A program made the translations under genes and the position numbers. A stretch of DNA of 59,663 nt, counting the filler, from Dimargaris cristalligena (lineage: Eukaryota), in the NCBI GenBank assembly GCA_003614675.1. It is 2 parts of 2 records of this genome, joined end to end, with 100 filler letters (N's around TTAATTAATTAA, not from the genome) between each part and the next. Parts side by side here need not be neighbours in the genome. Positions count along the whole stretch, not along the records: positions 1 to 29,800 come from ML002472.1; 1 more part is not named here. The stretch is one strand, 5' to 3'. The notes beneath the pieces are model-generated. The model did not search any database. It was not told the DNA's origin and was given only the letters and a program-made list of their open reading frames with translations. Of this stretch, positions 11,550-46,385 are shown piece after piece; position 1 is the stretch's first letter, and every line of letters starts with the position of its first letter.

Positions 11550-14500
11550 GTTAGGGTATGGAAAAGAGAGTGGGGAAGAGAAAAAGGGTATGAATGGAAA
11601 AGGGGTGAACGAAGGAGAGAAAAAGAGAGAGAGGTCGACAGACTAGACTATGAAGTACAGGGGGAAGGAGAACAGTGCAGTATATGTGTGGAACGCGAGT
11701 ATATATATATAAATATATATAGATTGGGGGACTTGAAAACTATACAGCAGAGAGAGACCCACAGATTGATGGAATAGTATAAGTAGAAGAACAAAGAAAG
11801 GAGTCCAACGAAGGGCAGCGACCGACGAATAAAATATACACAGGATACCGACGAGAATAGATGCTATGGAAACTAACTATACACCACTTCTACGAAGGGT
11901 AGCGGGTCTTTATAGGTGCGGTATTGTGTACGCCTATCGGAGAATCCTATCAACTTCCTTCCTCCACCCAGCTTGGGGCCTGTGGTATCATTATGGCCCG
12001 GGGCCTGGTCGATGGGGTGTGGTGTGGCCCCAACCTTGGTCCGCGATTCTGCAGACCTTCCGTTCCTTCTCTTTATTCGCCCGCATAGAAGAAAGATGTC
12101 TCTTCTTCTAGCCAAGGTCGCCGGTAGTTACTCTCCGTTCCCCTTTCCGCTCTATAGGTATTGGGGACTTCAGCAGATCGACATTGGGCAGCTGGTATAG
12201 GACTAAACATGGGCTCATAGAGCACAAAACAGCCCATTCCGATGTTTGGGAACCAAAAGTTCAACTCCAGGGGACATGGTTGCTATACTCCGCCCCAACC
12301 AAATCACCTATACGACAGTTATCGCTTTATACGGTTCGCAGGCCGCCAGGATGCCAATTGCTCGAGCCCCAGTACCCACCCACACACCCGTCCCGACCTA
12401 TTTAGGGGAAAATAGGGTCGTTTGGGGGCCACAAGTCAACACTGAGTCCATTAAAAATGAACTTAAATAACGTTGCCGATGGATCTCCCCCTGTGGAACG
12501 ATGACCGGGGCCTGGACCACCTCCCCCCCTTTCCGGTTCGAGCATTCCCCGGGCCTCTGGTTTTCTTACCCCAATCGCTCGCAAGAAATTTAGATTCGAT
12601 TCATTCACCCCCCCCCCTACAATCTACAGGACCACCCCCACCGAGTCCTCGGTATCCACCGCCTGATGAGCTATGGTTTAAGGGTCTTCCGCTTCCTTAC
12701 CCTTTCCCGTATGCCCCTCCAACGGTTCAAATAATAAAAGGTGAGTATCAAAGTGGGTGAATGGGTCACTTTAGGTGTACCCTTGACTGCCGCCCTGTCC
12801 CTTTGCCCATCGGTATCCCCTCACCCTTAGGAGGGAGTACCACACCTTGACCTCGTTTACCAACTATTCCACCCAACTTATACTTTAAAGTAGACCATTA
12901 TCATCTCCTCTCCTAAACAGTTCCAGACCAACTGTCGCGAAACGAGTGAATAGGTGAGTGTGGGAAGGAAACAATGACGGGTAGGCCTGGTGATCACCAC
13001 ACCCTCCCCATTCATCGGTGGAGAGTACCTTAACATTGATTGGGAATACCACCCTTAATTAGGCCTAGAAAAACGATGGACTTGCCTTTTTGCCTTGCCC
13101 TGTCTGCCTTCCCCAACCGCATCGGATTCCGCAACCCTCTTCTGTCCCATCCAACGACCACCACCATCAGCAGCAGGCCATGCAAGATACGAGGAGGAGG
13201 AGGAAGGGAGGGGGGCTGATAGATAACTTATATTGTGTCTCAGTCGCCACGCAGCCCGCCTATTCTCGCATCTTATGCAGGGTGGTGACTGGGTTTTAGA
13301 CTAATTGGCCCTCTATCTAACTCCTCTAACCCCTCAACCTCCCATATCCTTCAGCCTCGTCCATTCCAAACTAACCTAGGCTAGTCCAAGACCCAACACC
13401 CTTAGTAACACCACCAGGCAGGCGTCTCCCACGCTCAACAATACAAAAGCAACCCACTGAGTTCCTTGAAACAGGCCTCCATCGGCAAGTGACATCCTAT
13501 ATTTACCATATGAAATAACAAGCCCGACACTAATGGCCAAAACATGAGAATTAGTTTCAATGAATTGGCCGAATTACCTTATTCGATTCCCGGATTAGGA
13601 AGACTTTGGCCATTTCGTTCAGCTAACTTCCTAGGCTGATGTTCAATTTACCATGGAATCTACTACTACCCGCGACATGTCTATTACATTATATTCCCAC
13701 TCCCATTCTGCCCGCCCCAACCCAATCGGCCATGTATACCTGAAAGTGGCCAGTATCCCAAACGCCTAGCAGACTACCTATAGTCTGCCCTTCTATTCCC
13801 TCTAACTAGGAAACTCCCACTGCCCTAGACGCTGACATTTTCGCATAATGCCCAGGCTAACAGTACTACTAACAATGGGGTCGCCTTAACAAGGTCCTTG
13901 GGACCTTATCCATAGTTTATTCCTGCACGTTAAAAATAGACAACAGCCTCTCCTCCGGAATAATGCAACGTGACACTGCCATTCGTTTCACTGGTGCGTG
14001 CATCCCTATTACTTTATTCGTAACCCGTACCCCTCGGTCTGTTTAACGCAGGGCGTGGGTGGCAACATACACTTTTATTTTTGCTTGGCAAGGACCGTGG
14101 CTGATTGTTCCTGTATTCAAATCATACTTTGTGTATTTTTCGCATGCCGATCTGGTTGAATCGGTGAAACACCCAATTGTCTATATTCGGAGTATGTCAA
14201 TGGACGGTAGCACGGAAAATTAATCAAGAATATGGGCGGAAGGCCACCAAGCCCAAGATTTGATTTGTGCCAAAGTGAATTTTATTTAGAGGTAACCAAA
14301 AAACGACACCCGTTTTAACGTCGATAATGATAGTAATTTATGGACTAATGAAGCTGGGGCATTGGAGCAGTCTGTTGGGCCATCATCCTCCCGAAACCAT
14401 CGGCCCTGTGCCCTGGTTGGTGTACCTTGATTAAGGTGGTATGTACGTGGCAGCAAGGGATTGCCACCACATAAATTACTTCCAGTCCTCGACTACACTC

Positions 14501-14607
14501 ACTCACCCGACTACGACACCAGCGCCATTGAGGGCTATTGTCGTTGTATATATTCGATGGTATAATAGAGATGGGGGAGATGAACAAGGTTGGTTGTATG
14601 AGTCGTG

Positions 14608-16794
14608 CTACTCACTACGTTCGCCTGTCTGACCCCGATCCCGGTCCCGGCGCCATGCCTCGATACGTTTCTGCAAATCCAAGTCCGGCCGAATGTCCGA
14701 CCAAGACATAGGTATGCCTGTGAATGGATCTCGAGCTCGGGTGGTAGAATTAAAATAGCGCTGGAGTATATATAATACACACGGAATACAAAGTTACACA
14801 TCAAATACAGGCATAGTAGGCGGCAGTCCAATGACGAGAGTGGTGACACGTGGCGAGTTAAGGAATAACCATCTGCCCATGGAAGGGGGGGGGTGTATGT
14901 AAGGTGGCCAACCCGCATAGTATTTAACGAATTCGGTGTGGACAGTGATCGAACGATATTGGGGAGTAAGTAAGTACATGGAGTACAAACATAAAAAACA
15001 TCTCCTCTAAGAAACACGGGTAGAGAGTATAGCAGAGAGGATATTAGTAGAGTAATCACACATGTTGCCCGATGGTAACCGCTGGGGATTCTTCACCACT
15101 TCGTAGGTGAGGGCATCCAGAAAATCGGCAGGGACCACTTCCTCGACGGGGTTTGCGGTGCGCTCGTTAATTAGATGGTGTGGAGTCGGGCTATCATGGT
15201 GAGAATTGCAAATTGGCTCAGTTGGACTAGACGAAGGGGACTGAGATTCGCCTGACTTTACATATTCCTCCCCCGCACCGGTTGGGCTACTATTGGCGGT
15301 GGTGGTCATCGGTTGGTCTATTAAGCCCCACACTTGAAGTGATTGAAGAGCCACCAACGAAGGGCCGTGAACACTAGTAATGTAAAGGTCTAATCGGGCT
15401 ATCCGGTTTAGGTTCCGAGGCTCGCGTTGAAAATGGTACCATTGGATTTGGTCACCACGCTATTTCACCGTAGAGATTGGCGAAGAGTAGTGTAATTGAA
15501 TAAAAAAAACACAATGTGCGATAAAATGGGAGAGAGGTATCATAATAAAATAGGGCAAAGCTGTCGTTGTAGTTTACCGCCATTGTTAAAGAACCCAAAC
15601 CAGCTATTCTATCGAACTAGATCGGTACGTATATTATAGAATAGCTTACTGGATAGATTTCCGCTATTTGCTGACGGACATCGAAATCGGGAATAGGTTT
15701 CGAGCTACAAAGGCCTAGAATCTAGTTCAATGAATAGTTATTTTCAAACCTATCTCTATTTATATTAACCCATCGACGGCAGTAGTGAAGATTAGGGGTG
15801 GGTACGCAAGGAGCCACTAGGAAAATCAAAAATTAGACATGACTTACCCTTTGTTTATTAGTATTCGTAGGTGCCGGGACGTTGAAGGTGCCTAGGCTCA
15901 TGGGTACAGGCGGCCGAGGCTGATGGAGGGGACCAAGCGACTGAGATCCAAATTTGGTGGCATAAGGGTGGTGGTGATGACGATGCTGATGGTGGCGGTG
16001 ATGACGTTCATTATAGTGACGGTTTGGACCCGAGCTGGATGGGGCAGGTCGTGGCGCATATGTAAATTCAACTCTGACAGATCGAACACAATAATGCCCC
16101 ACCTGAGGCTGGAGACTTACCCCCCATAGATAAATGGGTGCTCTATAGTGGTTTTTATCGATAAGTTTAGTATTATAGGGTATAACGTCCGCCAAGCACA
16201 CGGAGTTGGTTAGGTTGATTGAAGAGTATGGTGAGTGTCTTTGGCTAGGCGATATGTAATTCAGCAGCAAACCGATTTTATAAACGAAATCACCGATGGG
16301 TGGTCAGACGATGTTATAATAGCAAACCTGTCTAATAGCCCACTTAACCCTCGCTTATAAATTCCTACCTAAATTCTAGACTGATTTTTACAGGCGGCTT
16401 AACAAAACTTTCGGCCATAAAACTGACGGGCTTTGACATTACATCTATAGTATCTAATAGCGCAGCACAAGTGAACAGGAGTGGGATTGGGAAGGGGGTG
16501 GGGATATAGAACTAATACAATGCTATAAGTGACTGTCCTATTTATATCTAACAATACTATGATTTGGAACTCCGGGCCGACCCGACAGGAAGGGGTGGGT
16601 ATAAGAGGCAATTGCGGGATGCCTATATAGATAGATAGATAGATATTCTTACTAGAATAGCCCAATGGGTCGCTATGGTTTGAATTAGGGACGGGTGAGA
16701 GAAGGTTCTCCACTTCATGGCCGTCCCGAGTGGGGGTGGGCTCACACGAAATGGCTTGGAGGTAATTCGGTTGGACGAGGTTAACGACATGCAT
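14608..16794 (-). CDS. UBOX5/RNF37-like U-box E3 ligase; exons 16794-16653, 16444-16369, 16142-15848, 15721-15650, 15459-15045, 14765-14608 (~385 aa); 3' end somewhat uncertain
   Basis: N-terminal DGHEVENLLS, FMAESFVKPPV and LQSLQVWG resemble the UBOX5 N-terminus. U-box reads PADFLDALTYEVVKNPQRLPSG..CDYST|IQRYF..RDPFTGIP..RPDLDLQKRIEAW. All exon phases are consistent. Confidence 0.8.
14766..15044 (-). other. U12-type (minor spliceosome) AT-AC intron, 279 nt
   Basis: 5' site ATATCCTCT at 15044; TTCCTTAAC at 14865-14857; 3' TATAC ending at 14766. Splicing joins A|TC to give DYSTIQRYF, matching U-box spacing. Confidence 0.8.
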
Positions 16795-29719: not shown

Positions 29720-29955
29720 TGTAAAGAACTGAAATTAAATCCTTGAAAACTGAACTTTATTTGAAAAGATAGATGATAAGAAGGGAAAGGTGATGATAGA
29801 NNNNNNNNNNNNNNNNNNNNNNNNNNNNNNNNNNNNNNNNNNNNTTAATTAATTAANNNNNNNNNNNNNNNNNNNNNNNNNNNNNNNNNNNNNNNNNNNN
29901 ATCTATCTTTTCAAATAAAGTTCAGTTTTCAAGGATTTGAGTTCAGTTCTTTACA
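29720..29955. mobile_element. Two inverted copies of a TGT...ACA-terminated repeat end (LTR- or TIR-like) flanking the assembly gap
   Basis: 29720-29774 is the reverse complement of 29901-29955 at 53/55 positions. The right copy contains AATAAA and ends ...TTTACA. Flanks differ (CCCAT / GAGGA), so no TSD. Confidence 0.65.
29801..29900. other. Assembly gap / artificial contig linker (N44-TTAATTAATTAA-N44)
   Basis: Symmetric N runs around a palindrome with stops in all six frames, total exactly 100 bp. Confidence 0.97.
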
Positions 29956-40609: not shown

Positions 40610-43600
40610 CTAAATGTACCGCCAAGCTTCACTACTCTCCGGTGGTTGCTCGGACACGTAGCTGGCCGGGAACACTCCTTGCAGTACCGCCTGGCCTTCA
40701 CCTCGATCAATCAGGCCCATCCACCAAATATCGTCACTGTTGTCAATCACAAAGATGCGCTCGCCCGCCCGGAATTCCAGCTCACCGTGTTCACGGGCGT
40801 TGAAGGGGAACTTGGCGTAGTACACGGGGTGATCTTTGAGGGAATCGCGGATCGTGGACGACCGCTCGGGGGCGGCGTTCACCAATTTGGACGTTTCCGC
40901 CGAGTCGCGGGCCGCTTTGCGGGAGTTTTCGGTGTGGTCGGGCACCATGGGGGCACCGGCAAGCTGACCCTCCTTCCCGCCGGGGCTGCTGCCATCACCA
41001 CCCTTTCCAGCAGGTCCCCATCCGTTCTGGTTGTAAATATCGTCAACCTGTCGAATATGGGCCCCAACCTGGTTTTGCGAAGAGTGGCCGAATGTAGCGC
41101 CCAGACCAGGCACGGGATTACCGTCAATTATGCCGGGCGACATTAGAATCTGCTGGTCCAGAGGTAGCGTGGGCGAGTCCAATTGGTACGAGTTACCCTT
41201 AAGCCTGCCATTGTCAGCAGTCATACTATTGGCATCCGACTCCAGTGACAACATGGTAGTGTAGTCTCCGCCCGTATTACCTGGCTTACTTGGTGAGTTG
41301 CTCAGACCCGCCATTGCAGCTGCGGCGGCGGCCGCCGCCCCCGTACCGTCGTGGGATATAGGACTGGGCGAGCGGCCATACAGATTATCATTAAGACTAG
41401 TCATCTCGATGTGGCCACGTCCCTGGTTGAACAATTCACCATCATCGAAATTAGATAGATGGTGGGGGGAAGGAGGTGACTCGACCATATGGTTGGGGTG
41501 GTTCCTAATCGGCAGAGGGGCGAGGCCAATTTGTGCTCCGGGCGCAGATGTCGAGGGGCCAGTTGCGTTCTGGTAGTTGTGCTGATCAACCATGTCATTG
41601 ATTTCATCGACATCGAATCCGTTCAACACCGATCCAATGGACAAGGGCCGCTTATCAACACTCTTGCCGCTCATTTTACCCAGGGCGCCTGCAGTGGCAG
41701 CACCAGCTGCAATACCCTCACCTCGCGAAATCTGCAAGTCTTCCATATCGGTCATGTTCGGGTCACTACTGTAGTAATGGTGGTAGGGAGATGTAGACAG
41801 CCGGTTGTTATTGCTGTTCAACGTGGCAGCAGTGGACTTAGGAGGTTGGTTAGCTTCGGCACTGGGCTGGAACGGCTGGTTCATAAACACAGCTCCGGCA
41901 TCATTGTCATTTAGACCACGCACTCCGAGTCCAGCGACGGCCCCGGCAGCTAAAGTCGGGTCAGCCATAGACGGGTCATTCGTATTCCATGGCTCGAACT
42001 TCGCTGCTTGGTTATTGAAGTCAAAGTCGGTGCCGGAATCACCCTGGGCAGGGACCGAAGCAGAGGCAGCCGTGGCTGAGATGACGGCCGCTGTACGCCG
42101 CTTGTTGCGCCAGTAAATGTAGGCCAGGCCGACGAGCACAATCAGGAACACGAGAGCCAAGGAAATAGCAATGGAGATGATGATCACCAAGGCGGTCGAT
42201 AGATAGTGGCGACTCTGAACAATGTTGTCCGGCAAGGGGTAGAATACACTACCAACCGACCCAGTCGTACCGTCTTCATTGATGGCCCGCAATAGAGGGA
42301 ACCACGATTTGTCATTAATATTGTACAAAGCGGTGCTCACTTGACCGAATTGAGACCAGGACAGCACACCCGATACCATTAAGCCGTATTGTATGGCTGT
42401 CTCGGTATCATCAGTGGCCCGGCGAGCCTTACTAGGGACGGGGACCTGGTCCCGCTTCTGCAAACCAGCACTACTGGGGGAGGGAGACGGGGACTGCGTG
42501 GATGAGGTAGCCGTTGAGCTAATACTGGTGGTGGTGGCTTTGGACGCTTTGGCGGGATCCGTTACATTAAGAGGCACCAGGGAAATATCCTGGATCAGAC
42601 TGCCCTGCAGGTCGATGGCCGTAGTTAGCGGGGCAAAACTGGACCCATTCCAGTACCACAGGTAGGACTGAGTGGAATCGCCCACGGTACCTGATAAGTA
42701 AAATTGAAGCGACGAAACCATATTTTGGGCCGTCGAACTACCAGTATCGGCCCCCGTGTTCTTGGTATCGCTGCTCTTACTGCTGCTGCTACTAGACGAG
42801 GAGCTTAAATCAGTGGCGGACTTACCATTATCGATAACCGCAATAGAGAGGATGGGGCCCGGAAGAGTACTGGTGGAAGGGAAAGCAATCCACGTACCGA
42901 ATTCAGTGCCGTAGAGAGCCAGGCTGTGGGCCTGTTGACCAATGGTGAAGTTGCCTCCGGCCATGATCCACTTCTGGCCACCAACCACCGAGAGTGAGGT
43001 GACGACACCAGGAAGCCCAGTGCCCAGATTCTGCCATTGATTGGCCTGGTAGTTGAATAGGCAAACACTATCGCACTGGAGAGAACCGGCCCGGGAAAAG
43101 CGGCCACCCACGACTACGGTTTGGGTGTTGGGGAGGGAAACGATCTGCTTAACGAACACGGAACTATTGGTTTGCAGGACATTATTGAGGTAGTCATTGG
43201 TCAGAAGGCCGGACCCACCATCGCTTTGCCCACTGAGGTGCGAAATAGACAGCACGTATTCCTCCGTCTGGAAATTCCACACGGTAAACCCGTTGAAGCC
43301 CTGGTTATCGCCCTCGAGGGGGATACCGCCGATAAAGAGTTTCGAATCCGCCAGGGCCAGGGAGTGAATCTCACCATTGATACCTTGGCCAAGCGGGGAG
43401 AGGGAATCGGAGCTGACGAGGGCAATATTCCGAATATCATCGGTGGGCCCACGGAATCGGCCGGCAATGACCAATTCGGGGGCCTGACCATCTTCGTTGG
43501 ATGATGGAGAGAAGTAGATGCCCGTATGAACCGCAGCACCATTGTGGGAGAAGGATGAAACGGTACCACCAGTAGTATCACTGGACAGGAGGGAATCGCT

Positions 43601-46048
43601 GATAACCGGGCTCAGGTCGTAAGTACCGGACATGCCGATAATGCCGGGCACGCGGGATGAAGCGGCGGCGGTGAAAGGCCCCGCAAAGATGAGTGGGGTG
43701 GCACTATTGTTAGACTGGCTCAATTGGCTCAGCTCACTGTCGGTGAAGACTTGCTGGCCGTTCATGGACTGGATACCGCCGTTAAGGAAGGGGGTACCGG
43801 TCCAGGACTGATCTTTAATGTCCCAGGCAGCGAGTCCGCGGACTTTAAGGTCGGTTTGGGTGTGGTTGCCATCTTTGTAGGCGGTCGTAAATGCACCCCC
43901 AAGATATACGATGGGGGCCTGGTTGTGATAGGCCAAAGTTACATACTCTACGGCCCCGTTGAGACCACCACCAACGGCTGAGAACTTGTTATCGCGGAGG
44001 GACATAACGGCAATCCTATTGAGCTTGTTGTCGGTGGACTGTGAGTGGGTACCAGTGAATCGACCACCAATATAAACATCGTTAGATCCGACGAGGACCA
44101 TTTGGGTGACCTCGTCGTTGAGACCGGCACCGCCGGGGGACACCAACTTGCCATTTTCGTGCTTGACCAGGTTGAAAGCCCCTGACGTCTTATCGGCGAA
44201 ATAACCTCCGATGAGCAGATTGTTGTCATCGTAAGGTAGTAGGGAGCGCACTACGGCTCCTTCGCTTAGAGGGGTCTGGAGTGAATCGTAGGCTAAGGAT
44301 TCCCACTGGAGGGTTTCGTAAGTGTTGCCTTGAGGGGTAAGGGAAATGATACCACCCAGGTCTTCCATGGACGGCACTTTAGTAATTATCAGGGCCGAAA
44401 CAACCAGATTGACCGACGAGGTGCCTGATTGGAAGACGGGCTTACTGGAGAGGGTGAGTTTAACGGTGGGCATAAAGGTGTCGTTCCGGGCGGCTACAAA
44501 GCCCGTGTAGAAAAGGACGTCAGTGTCGGTAAGCGAGTCTTGGCCGATGGTCGACTTATCCGACTGGCCGGGGTACAAGGCCATGGACAGATCTACGGAT
44601 GTGCGAGTAGCGCAGTCGTTATTGTACTGGCAACCAGGGATCCGGAGCGAGACTTTATAGTAGCCGGACTCGGTAACGTCGGGGCTGTACTCAACGGTGT
44701 TGGTGGTAGTGTCCAACTTAGCGGTGCTAATTGCGGCCTGCAGATAAGTGTGCTGAGTGAGGGGAACCGTGACCTGAGTCCAACCCCCGGTGAGGTGGGT
44801 GGTCGAGTCGTAGTTAACGCTGTTACAGGCATTGTTGACCCGGTCGATGGGGGAGGCCGTGATATCCCGTTGATAGATTTCGACGGCCTGGAGACCAGCC
44901 CCCTGACCGTACCAGGCCTCGATGTTAATGCGTACACCCGTGGTGTTCACGTCGTCATCTACGACAAACTCTTGCCAGTTGGATGAATCGAGGGCCAGCG
45001 GGCAGGATTCGGTACACTTGATGCGTTTGTTAGTGTTAGGGTCGATGTAAGAGAGGGCAATGGCAACATACTGGGGGGCCGACTCCAAACGGAAAGTTTG
45101 GGTGCCCCGACCGTTCCAGTTGGTGTTCTTAATACGGAGCAAGGCCGGTCGGATGGACCGAGTAAAGTCGACCCGCCAAAAGCCAGGCATGAGATCCCGC
45201 AGAAGCCATGGATTCCGAGCCCGGTTCGCATTAACGGTACAAATGGCATTTAAGGGGCTGGAGTAGTTGGCCGAGGAATTATCGTTACCACTGGTAACGG
45301 TCGCCGCACCGAGGTTGACGGGCTGGGACCCCAGTGGAAGGGATGATTCATCGTCAGCGGTCTGGGTGAAGTTACCACCAAAGTAGATGGTTTTTCCGCT
45401 GGGCGAGGCAGCAATGGTGTTCACATAACCATCCAGGCCCTTGAATGGAGCCGGGAGCCAGGTTCCACTACCCCATATTATAGAGTTAGGGCCGAATCCC
45501 CGGGTGGGCGGTGAGTTGGTATCGGTGCTTTTGCGCAGAGGCCCTGTGAAAAAACCGCCTACGTAAACCAGCTCACGGGCGTTGTCGCAGTAGAGACTCA
45601 GGACTGAGCCGTCAAGGCCTCGGCCGAGAGCAACGGCCTGCTTCCGAGTAAGATCGTAGGCGATGATGCTCTGGCTCGCCACACCGGCGAAGGTGGTAAA
45701 ATTACCCCCAATGAAAACCAATGACTGCTTGGCATTATGAATTTGGCAGGTGGCCATTATTTGGTCGCCTTTGGACGCGGAACCGAGAATATCGAGACTG
45801 GTTCCATTGACGAAAATGGCGGATGACGCCTGGCTACTCAGTAGGGGTTGGTTAGTGGTGCTCGAAACACTGGATAGCCGGGATATGCCGCTGAATTGGC
45901 CGGTAATGGCCAGTTGACCTGTTGCTGAAGTATCAATGGGGGGAATAGCTGAGGCGGAGGTGTCGTTCCCAGCGGCCACGGTATAAAAGGCGGGGTGGCT
46001 AGCGGCCAACAGCGCGGCCGCCGTTAGCCTTAGGATAAAGTGTATCAT
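40610..46048 (-). CDS. RAX2: Rax2-like cell-polarity type I membrane protein with C-terminal SH3 domain (1812 aa)
   Basis: Signal peptide; repeated beta-propeller-like units (YVGGFF, YFGGNF, YIGGRF); PGCQYNNDCATRT; AGSLQCDSVC; TM LVIIISIAISLALVFLIVLVGLAYIYW; SH3 YAKFPFNAREHGELEF..WW..GVFPASYV. Confidence 0.88.
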   Translation of the reverse strand: MIHFILRLTAAALLAASHPAFYTVAAGNDTSASAIPPIDTSATGQLAITGQFSGISRLSSVSSTTNQPLLSSQASSAIFVNGTSLDILGSASKGDQIMATCQIHNAKQSLVFIGGNFTTFAGVASQSIIAYDLTRKQAVALGRGLDGSVLSLYCDNARELVYVGGFFTGPLRKSTDTNSPPTRGFGPNSIIWGSGTWLPAPFKGLDGYVNTIAASPSGKTIYFGGNFTQTADDESSLPLGSQPVNLGAATVTSGNDNSSANYSSPLNAICTVNANRARNPWLLRDLMPGFWRVDFTRSIRPALLRIKNTNWNGRGTQTFRLESAPQYVAIALSYIDPNTNKRIKCTESCPLALDSSNWQEFVVDDDVNTTGVRINIEAWYGQGAGLQAVEIYQRDITASPIDRVNNACNSVNYDSTTHLTGGWTQVTVPLTQHTYLQAAISTAKLDTTTNTVEYSPDVTESGYYKVSLRIPGCQYNNDCATRTSVDLSMALYPGQSDKSTIGQDSLTDTDVLFYTGFVAARNDTFMPTVKLTLSSKPVFQSGTSSVNLVVSALIITKVPSMEDLGGIISLTPQGNTYETLQWESLAYDSLQTPLSEGAVVRSLLPYDDNNLLIGGYFADKTSGAFNLVKHENGKLVSPGGAGLNDEVTQMVLVGSNDVYIGGRFTGTHSQSTDNKLNRIAVMSLRDNKFSAVGGGLNGAVEYVTLAYHNQAPIVYLGGAFTTAYKDGNHTQTDLKVRGLAAWDIKDQSWTGTPFLNGGIQSMNGQQVFTDSELSQLSQSNNSATPLIFAGPFTAAASSRVPGIIGMSGTYDLSPVISDSLLSSDTTGGTVSSFSHNGAAVHTGIYFSPSSNEDGQAPELVIAGRFRGPTDDIRNIALVSSDSLSPLGQGINGEIHSLALADSKLFIGGIPLEGDNQGFNGFTVWNFQTEEYVLSISHLSGQSDGGSGLLTNDYLNNVLQTNSSVFVKQIVSLPNTQTVVVGGRFSRAGSLQCDSVCLFNYQANQWQNLGTGLPGVVTSLSVVGGQKWIMAGGNFTIGQQAHSLALYGTEFGTWIAFPSTSTLPGPILSIAVIDNGKSATDLSSSSSSSSSKSSDTKNTGADTGSSTAQNMVSSLQFYLSGTVGDSTQSYLWYWNGSSFAPLTTAIDLQGSLIQDISLVPLNVTDPAKASKATTTSISSTATSSTQSPSPSPSSAGLQKRDQVPVPSKARRATDDTETAIQYGLMVSGVLSWSQFGQVSTALYNINDKSWFPLLRAINEDGTTGSVGSVFYPLPDNIVQSRHYLSTALVIIISIAISLALVFLIVLVGLAYIYWRNKRRTAAVISATAASASVPAQGDSGTDFDFNNQAAKFEPWNTNDPSMADPTLAAGAVAGLGVRGLNDNDAGAVFMNQPFQPSAEANQPPKSTAATLNSNNNRLSTSPYHHYYSSDPNMTDMEDLQISRGEGIAAGAATAGALGKMSGKSVDKRPLSIGSVLNGFDVDEINDMVDQHNYQNATGPSTSAPGAQIGLAPLPIRNHPNHMVESPPSPHHLSNFDDGELFNQGRGHIEMTSLNDNLYGRSPSPISHDGTGAAAAAAAAMAGLSNSPSKPGNTGGDYTTMLSLESDANSMTADNGRLKGNSYQLDSPTLPLDQQILMSPGIIDGNPVPGLGATFGHSSQNQVGAHIRQVDDIYNQNGWGPAGKGGDGSSPGGKEGQLAGAPMVPDHTENSRKAARDSAETSKLVNAAPERSSTIRDSLKDHPVYYAKFPFNAREHGELEFRAGERIFVIDNSDDIWWMGLIDRGEGQAVLQGVFPASYVSEQPPESSEAWRYI

Positions 46049-46385
46049 AAAGAGGTTAAATTATATGGAAATGTTAAAGAGAGGGCCGTCTACAAACAGG
46101 CCCTGGGAGAAGAAGTACGCCACGGGGTATGTAGAATAAGAGTAGACGCCACTTTTGGGGGGATACGGCGGGGTGACAAGAGTAGCCGATGGGGAGAGAG
46201 AGAGAGAGAAAGAAAGAGAGATCTAATTCAGGAACTAAGAATGAAGAGTTGGAATACAAAGTCACGGGGTAGACAAAATAAGAGGGGGTACGGATGTGGG
46301 TAGAATAGAGGAGTAAACGGACGACCAGCGTTACTCGTATCGACGTTCAAAGGGGGGGGAAAGACGTAGATAGCTAGGGGTGAAA

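Follow-up and report, generated by a model that had tools for sequence, protein, structure and literature searches.

A predicted U12-type AT-AC intron in an RNF37-like gene of Dimargaris cristalligena has its only consensus branch sequence 92 nt from the acceptor

The stretch of DNA analyzed here, 59.7 kb (59,663 nucleotides, nt) from the Dimargaris cristalligena assembly GCA_003614675.1 and called the window throughout, carries an RNF37/UBOX5-like gene on its minus strand at 14608-16794. The U-box of this gene is split by a predicted AT-AC intron, and the only consensus branch sequence for the minor spliceosome within that intron lies far from the acceptor that restores the domain. The two coding exons on either side of the intron, and the signals at its ends, are as follows.

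15045..15459, minus strand: upstream exon, with the end of DUF5918 and the first half of the U-box; it ends in phase 1, as ...CDYST plus one base (A)
15037..15044, minus strand: U12-type 5' splice site ATATCCTC, intron positions +1 to +8, matching ATATCCTT at 7 of 8 positions
14766..15044, minus strand: 279-nt AT-AC intron that the deposited annotation lacks; best donor/acceptor pair and best product against a family hidden Markov model (HMM)
14766..14767, minus strand: productive 3' splice site AC, in the context TATATAC/TCCAG; the junction is gap-free against the D. verticillata ortholog
14608..14765, minus strand: terminal coding exon, in which TC completes the split Ile codon, followed by QRYFNS... 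and the second half of the U-box; stop codon TAG at 14610-14608

The gene belongs to the RNF37/UBOX5-like family, in which DUF5918 (PF19318) is followed by one contiguous U-box (PF04564). Translated, 15459-15045 matches the deposited protein BJ085DRAFT_30280 (P0001) at 100% identity; the UniRef name of this protein is RING finger protein 37, and its pre-computed Pfam annotation lists PF19318. DUF5918 was recovered here in pieces, with E-values of 0.0003 and 0.042, both under the Pfam cut-off. In the D. verticillata ortholog (P0002, 330 residues) both families pass, DUF5918 with 81.7 bits and the U-box with 53.8 bits in one stretch. The U-box of D. cristalligena is found as two halves: Pfam profile positions 1-29 match residues 109-137 in the upstream exon (17.1 bits) and positions 38-71 match the terminal exon (18.5 bits), each half alone falling under the cut-off of 21.4 bits. 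Word-based protein searches found only P0001 and P0002, and an exhaustive HMMER search returned 543 homologs at E ≤ 0.001, the best 150 of which were used. Orthologous DNA was sought in two scans of metagenome contigs with ortholog alignments; of 475 and 337 pattern matches, none was confirmed.

Because four independent comparisons agree on how the two halves are joined, we conclude that the protein requires the junction 15045/14765. First, the D. verticillata ortholog crosses this junction without a gap (...CDRST-V-QRYF...). With tblastn, its residues 157-282 align to 15534-15046 and the sequence from Q284 onward aligns from 14763 onward (E 7.9e-10); the single residue between the two blocks, V283, corresponds to the split codon A/TC. 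Second, we combined GT, GC and AT donors at 15130-14986 with AG and AC acceptors at 14900-14736 and scored the resulting 416 pairs against the C-terminus of the ortholog. AT15044-AC14766 came out on top with a score of 201, followed by the next pairs at 182, with read-through at 77. Third, 12 products were scored with a family HMM of 153 U-box segments among 149 homologs, with P0001 left out. The junction product is the best of the 12 at 87.4 bits, its residues 109-178 aligning to HMM positions 3-72 free of any net indel. The next five products in rank reach 71.3-77.7 bits, the products of the five ACs nearest the branch site (14850 to 14816) reach 32.7-34.7 bits and read-through reaches 32.4 bits. 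Fourth, the exon boundary cannot slide by even a base, as the flanking bases differ on the two sides.

The difference between the junction product and read-through shows that exon 2 contributes about 55 bits to the family HMM score, so this exon has been kept by selection. Given that conservation, which the tblastn alignment also displays, exon 2 must be translated in the junction frame. The deposited model of BJ085DRAFT_30280 instead treats the start of the AT-AC intron as coding and terminates after 16 residues of it, ending ...STNILSAILSTRVS with a truncated U-box. It also takes an internal GTAAGT as a donor and thereby omits ~16130-15990 (...VSLQPQVGHYCVRSVRVEFTY...), a segment that can be aligned to the D. 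verticillata ortholog. Because another conserved segment is skipped in this way, the deposited model is not a reliable guide to the gene. Judged by these alignments the model is wrong and the gene needs to be re-annotated.

Both ends of the intron carry signals of the minor class. The terminal dinucleotides are AT and AC, and the donor ATATCCTC, which falls exactly at the reading-frame break in the U-box, agrees with the U12-type 5' splice site /RTATCCTT at seven of eight positions. From these signals and the protein comparisons, we take this to be a genuine U12-type (minor-class) AT-AC intron in an RNF37-like U-box gene, and we infer its removal from the RNA. A U2-type AT-AC intron was considered and rejected. 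According to PMC1557818, the donor of such introns fits the U2-type consensus except at the first base, and ATATCCTC is unlike the donors of the U2-type introns in the same gene.

15455-16655, minus strand: four U2-type introns of ~130-230 nt each, with donors GTAAGA, GTAGGA, GTAAGT and GTAAGC and ends CTATAG, CTATAG, AACTAG and AAATAG

The limits of these four introns rest on the deposited model and on the ortholog rather than on RNA. The last four bases are ATAG in three of them and ATAC (within ATATAC) in the AT-AC intron; this resemblance in A/T context comes from too few introns to make a rule, and we do not lean on it.

The unusual feature of the AT-AC intron is the position of its branch sequence. 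Three sites bear on this question.

14857..14865, minus strand: consensus U12 branch sequence TTCCTTAAC, matching TTCCTTRAY at 9 of 9 positions; candidate branch adenosines at 14859 and 14858
14793..14799, minus strand: GTGTAAC, a candidate branch site of weak or U2-like type, at 28 nt from the acceptor; the 9-mer ATGTGTAAC matches the U12 consensus at 5 of 9 positions
14778..14786, minus strand: TTCCGTGTG, matching the U12 branch consensus at 6 of 9 positions, at the optimal 13-nt spacing and with no adenosine at the branch positions

The initial annotation had described a lone consensus branch about 92 nt before the domain-restoring AC. Our scan agrees: TTCCTTAAC, read from 14865 to 14857, is the sole such 9-mer within the intron and fully satisfies the U12-type branch consensus. 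From A14858 to AC 14766 the spacing is 92 nt, roughly seven times the usual distance and well outside the range for U12-type introns (roughly 10-20 nt, with an optimum of 11-13 nt). A match at 9 of 9 positions to TTCCTTRAY was found in 0.12% of 3210 random 41-position windows, which corresponds to a chance of ~0.8% per whole intron. Between 5 and 45 nt from the acceptor there is no better branch signal than a match at 6 of 9 positions, a level met at 62% of random positions. The branch-site anomaly is confirmed at the level of the sequence, where the intron and its junction are also well supported.

Within the window, TTCCTTAAC occurs twice, against 0.55 copies expected. The second copy, at 43781-43789 on the minus strand, lies in an uninterrupted open reading frame of 1816 amino acids (40610-46060), where it encodes ...PFLNG...; we rejected it as a branch site and regard it as a coding coincidence. 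The strict donor motif is not rare by itself, since the window holds 12 matches against 7.4 expected. Among these 12, only the copy at 15044 follows a long open frame, of 138 codons, and is itself followed by a branch motif. On the plus strand at 13344-13480, ATATCCTTCA is followed 118 nt on by TTCCTTGAA, which matches the branch consensus at 8 of 9 positions, with 18 open codons upstream. This pair is probably a product of chance.

Any use of the distant branch sequence would have to pass over a spacer that contains other potential acceptors, all on the minus strand.

14768..14856, minus strand: spacer from the branch sequence to the productive acceptor, with no AG and six internal ACs, unstructured and unique in the window
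14840..14851, minus strand: three proximal ACs with last bases 14850, 14843 and 14840, giving products of 33.0, 32.7 and 34.7 bits versus 87.4 bits for the distal AC
AC 14850, 8 nt from A14858: in frame, stops at TAA
AC 14843, 15 nt from A14858: frameshift
AC 14840, 18 nt from A14858: frameshift
AC 14826, 32 nt from A14858: in frame, stops at TAA
AC 14816, 42 nt from A14858: frameshift
AC 14793, 65 nt from A14858: in frame, with nine added residues

These outcomes reproduce those given in the initial annotation, in which 14843 and 14840 shift the frame, 14850 and 14826 run into TAA and 14793 adds nine residues; AC 14816 has to be added to that list. None of the products of ACs 14850, 14843 and 14840 retains the second half of the U-box. 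The proximal ACs may plausibly be used for unproductive splicing: those 15 and 18 nt away have the spacing preferred by the animal machinery and would open a frame that loses this half of the domain. A stop-free frame of 185 codons (14535-15092, minus strand) also spans the entire intron and exon 2, where its frame differs from that of the U-box. ACs 14843, 14840 and 14816 all enter it, which gives a hydrophobic tail of ~100 amino acids (101) in which no Pfam family scored above its cut-off. This alternative frame is probably a by-product of the T/C-rich strand.

The absence of any AG from the intervening stretch, also reported in the initial annotation, is borne out: no AG occurs between 14873 and 14762, a zone of 110 nt. 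Shuffling gives a P of ~0.02-0.03 for such a zone, another AG-free run of 127 nt lies just upstream within the same intron, and 5.8% of the bases in the window fall in AG-free gaps this long. We therefore rejected an AG-exclusion zone as the mark of a distant branch; the zone is real, yet neither shuffling nor its frequency in the window makes it special. Because the spacer has no AG, a GT-AG intron nested within it is impossible. A micro-exon model, with splicing to AC 14850 followed by a second intron from GT 14808 to AG 14761, keeps the frame, but it was dropped because it adds 14 residues where the ortholog has two. Insertion of a repeat or mobile element was rejected as the origin of the spacer, which has no further copy, duplicated or inverted, in the window.

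The mechanism that we tentatively favor, with somewhat less than even confidence, is branching at the consensus TTCCTTAAC and selection of a 3' site far downstream, in competition with the out-of-frame ACs 15 and 18 nt away. In outline, a U11/U12 particle would recognize the donor ATATCCTC together with the sole strong branch sequence TTCCTTAAC, and a lariat would form at A14858 or A14859. The exon end at 15045 would then be joined to 14765 to give the productive mRNA. Joining these two positions would mean that the choice of the acceptor AC falls in the second catalytic step and reaches ~92 nt past the branch, unlike in animal cells, where the acceptor is set 10-20 nt from the branch as assembly begins. 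Competition from the ACs 15 and 18 nt away is probable and would yield frameshifted products without a U-box. We infer from the sequence the splicing of the intron, the identity of the branching adenosine and the way in which the distal AC prevails. Use of the perfect motif across 92 nt is favored because a chance match at all nine positions has a probability of only ~0.8% and nothing near the acceptor rises above background.

The initial annotation had offered three mechanisms, namely lineage-specific long-range selection of the 3' site, looping-out by RNA structure and regulated unproductive splicing at proximal ACs. Lineage-specific long-range selection appears to be the best reading of the three. 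A more general version of it, which we hold with less assurance still, is that in Dimargaris and perhaps in more early-diverging fungi the minor spliceosome may commit to an intron through nothing but its donor and branch, and then, at the second step, use an acceptor up to ~90 nt off, past six nearer ACs.

Several observations weigh against long-range selection. Use of the productive acceptor would mean passing over six ACs that are nearer to the branch sequence, two of them ideally spaced, and no sequence feature accounts for this. In the same gene, the U2-type introns, four in number, are ordinary, with GTARG donors and no unusual 3' architecture. Only one assembly carries the sequence, and a search confined to the 59.7-kb window gave no Rfam match at gathering thresholds, whether to U11, U12, U4atac or U6atac or to any other family. 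In human cells, spacings below 10 nt or above 20 nt reportedly activate other sites, and the U12 spliceosome is said to be seemingly unable to scan for a distal 3' site. According to Turunen et al. (2013, PMC3584512), the U12-type branch-to-acceptor distance matters and is short, 11-13 nt being the optimum.

Among the alternatives, the one that survives best keeps the spacing rule and places a weak, non-consensus branch near the acceptor, although we consider it unlikely. The branch point would be an A in GTGTAAC, 28 nt upstream, or would lie in the TTCCGTGTG / TATTATATA stretch 8-14 nt upstream; TTCCTTAAC would then be a decoy, a relic or a branch site for the proximal ACs only, giving rise to an isoform that is alternative or unproductive. 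TTCCGTGTG does sit at exactly 13 nt, and GTGTAAC with its T-rich tract resembles a U2-style 3' region. GTGTAAC had been named in the initial annotation as a site whose use would count against a distant branch, and its match to the U12 branch consensus at 5 of 9 positions neither proves nor excludes such use. Against a branch of this kind, the best match near the acceptor is the one at 6 of 9 positions, common among random positions and lacking an adenosine where the branch should be, and a perfect 9-mer would have to have arisen elsewhere in the intron by chance (P ~0.008). Moreover, U12 splicing is reported to follow, and to be governed by, the stability of the pairing between branch and U12. 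In Olthof et al. (2024, PMC11347168), the branch predicted by motif, that is, by branch-U12 pairing, is the branch used in 94% of human minor introns. The weak-branch explanation draws some support from Turunen et al. (2013, PMC3584512), who describe U12 3' site selection as error-prone.

It is quite improbable that an assembly artefact added part of the ~90-nt spacer to a genome whose actual spacing is normal. The sequence rests on one assembly and one contig, and the genome was reportedly obtained from amplified single or few cells, a chimera-prone method. On the other side, the spacer is unique in the window, neither a duplicate nor an inverted copy lies nearby, the sequence on each side is collinear with the gene, and assemblers seldom make clean insertions of novel sequence.

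It is a shade less probable again that the lineage has changed its U12 branch recognition, such that the functional motif near the acceptor is non-canonical and the 9-mer at -92 is coincidental. Physarum offers a precedent: according to a preprint (10.1101/2020.10.12.336362), its introns have TTTGA at 9-12 nt from the 3' site and its U12 snRNA carries compensating changes. Such a change in Dimargaris would need a coincidence of ~0.8%, and one intron cannot yield a lineage motif.

We give very little credence to the view that the intron is never productively removed, that the read-through model is right and that the protein ends 16 residues into the intron, with exon 2 as a relic. The deposited model does end in this way. 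However, exon 2 has kept its open frame, with ~55 bits of family signal, and is gap-free against the ortholog, the half U-box alone scores only 32.4 bits, and the model that supports read-through skips a further conserved segment.

The looping-out proposed in the initial annotation, by which an RNA hairpin would place the distal AC at a normal distance from the branch, is the least credible explanation and did not hold up: the stretch from branch to acceptor folds worse than shuffled sequence (minimum free energy -13 kcal/mol, z +2.19; equal or better folding in 198 of 200 shuffles), and the structure-corrected distances, 28 in the local fold and 65 in the whole intron, are matched or undercut in 81 of 100 and 26 of 30 shuffles, respectively. 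The precedent for such a hairpin comes from U2-type introns of Saccharomyces cerevisiae with long distances from branch to 3' site, in which hairpins reportedly often shorten the path. Those introns share with the Dimargaris intron a long branch-acceptor distance and, if the favored mechanism holds, a 3' site chosen at the second step. They differ in that an AG is used by the major spliceosome, often across a hairpin, whereas no bridging structure is present in the Dimargaris intron.

The closest relatives of this intron are the canonical U12-type AT-AC introns of animals, plants and early-diverging fungi, such as human NOL1/P120 intron F and those of Rhizophagus and Basidiobolus described in PMC10639083. 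They share with it the AT-AC termini, an ATATCCTY donor, a perfect TTCCTTAAC and a location in a conserved gene. In those introns the spacing has its optimum at 11-13 nt, whereas in the Dimargaris intron it is 92 nt and the ACs at normal spacing are out of frame. Human lariat maps (PMC5378181) place U12 branches nearer the acceptor than U2 branches. The U12-type introns of Physarum polycephalum, as described in the preprint, are a lineage-specific departure in the 3' signals of minor introns. There, however, the motif has become TTTGA with a matched change in the U12 snRNA and the spacing has stayed tight at 9-12 nt, whereas in the Dimargaris intron the motif is canonical and the spacing altered. 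A third comparison is with the 'hybrid' and 'minor-like' classes of Olthof et al. (2024, PMC11347168). A classifier confined to the region near the 3' end would file the Dimargaris intron in such a class, as having a minor donor and no minor branch. Introns of those classes are mostly GT-AG and open to either spliceosome, in contrast to the AT-AC termini, full minor donor and perfect though misplaced minor branch motif found here.

Few rules are considered general to every minor-class intron, and a short, fixed distance from branch to acceptor is one of them. Mechanistic models, in which recognition of the 3' site comes early and beside the branch, depend on it, as does every computational classifier. 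If the conserved U-box is made, then one rule has to fail, either that of spacing, with a perfect motif at 92 nt, or that of pairing, with a branch that lacks recognizable U12 pairing. Should it be spacing that fails, the intron would be a natural substrate for the study of 3' site choice by the minor spliceosome, and surveys of fungi and protists would call for wider search windows. Tight U12 spacing would then be a feature of animals and plants and not a universal one. Branch motifs have been sought at -45..-5 in the method given in the preprint 10.1101/2020.10.12.336362 and at -40..-5 in that given in PMC2846911. Because classifiers search only these ranges, the D. cristalligena intron would be scored as lacking a minor branch site, and, if long-range selection is real, surveys limited to the last 40-45 nt would systematically miss such introns. 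This one is, in addition, missing from the deposited annotation on which such surveys draw.

A literature search found no paper naming both Dimargaris and U12. D. cristalligena was included in the survey PMC10639083 and is a label in its supplementary tree. Human UBOX5 was sought as a known minor-intron gene and not found in eight supplement files of PMC6717393, and the single paper that a literature search returned as naming both UBOX5 and U12 is unrelated. In the linker of the RNF37-like protein of D. cristalligena, a His-rich run, HHRHHQHRHHHH, is encoded at 15930-16010 on the minus strand; the D. verticillata ortholog has no such run at that place. The window itself consists of concatenated contigs, which meet at two runs of 44 N each (29801-29844 and 29857-29900) with 12 bases between them.

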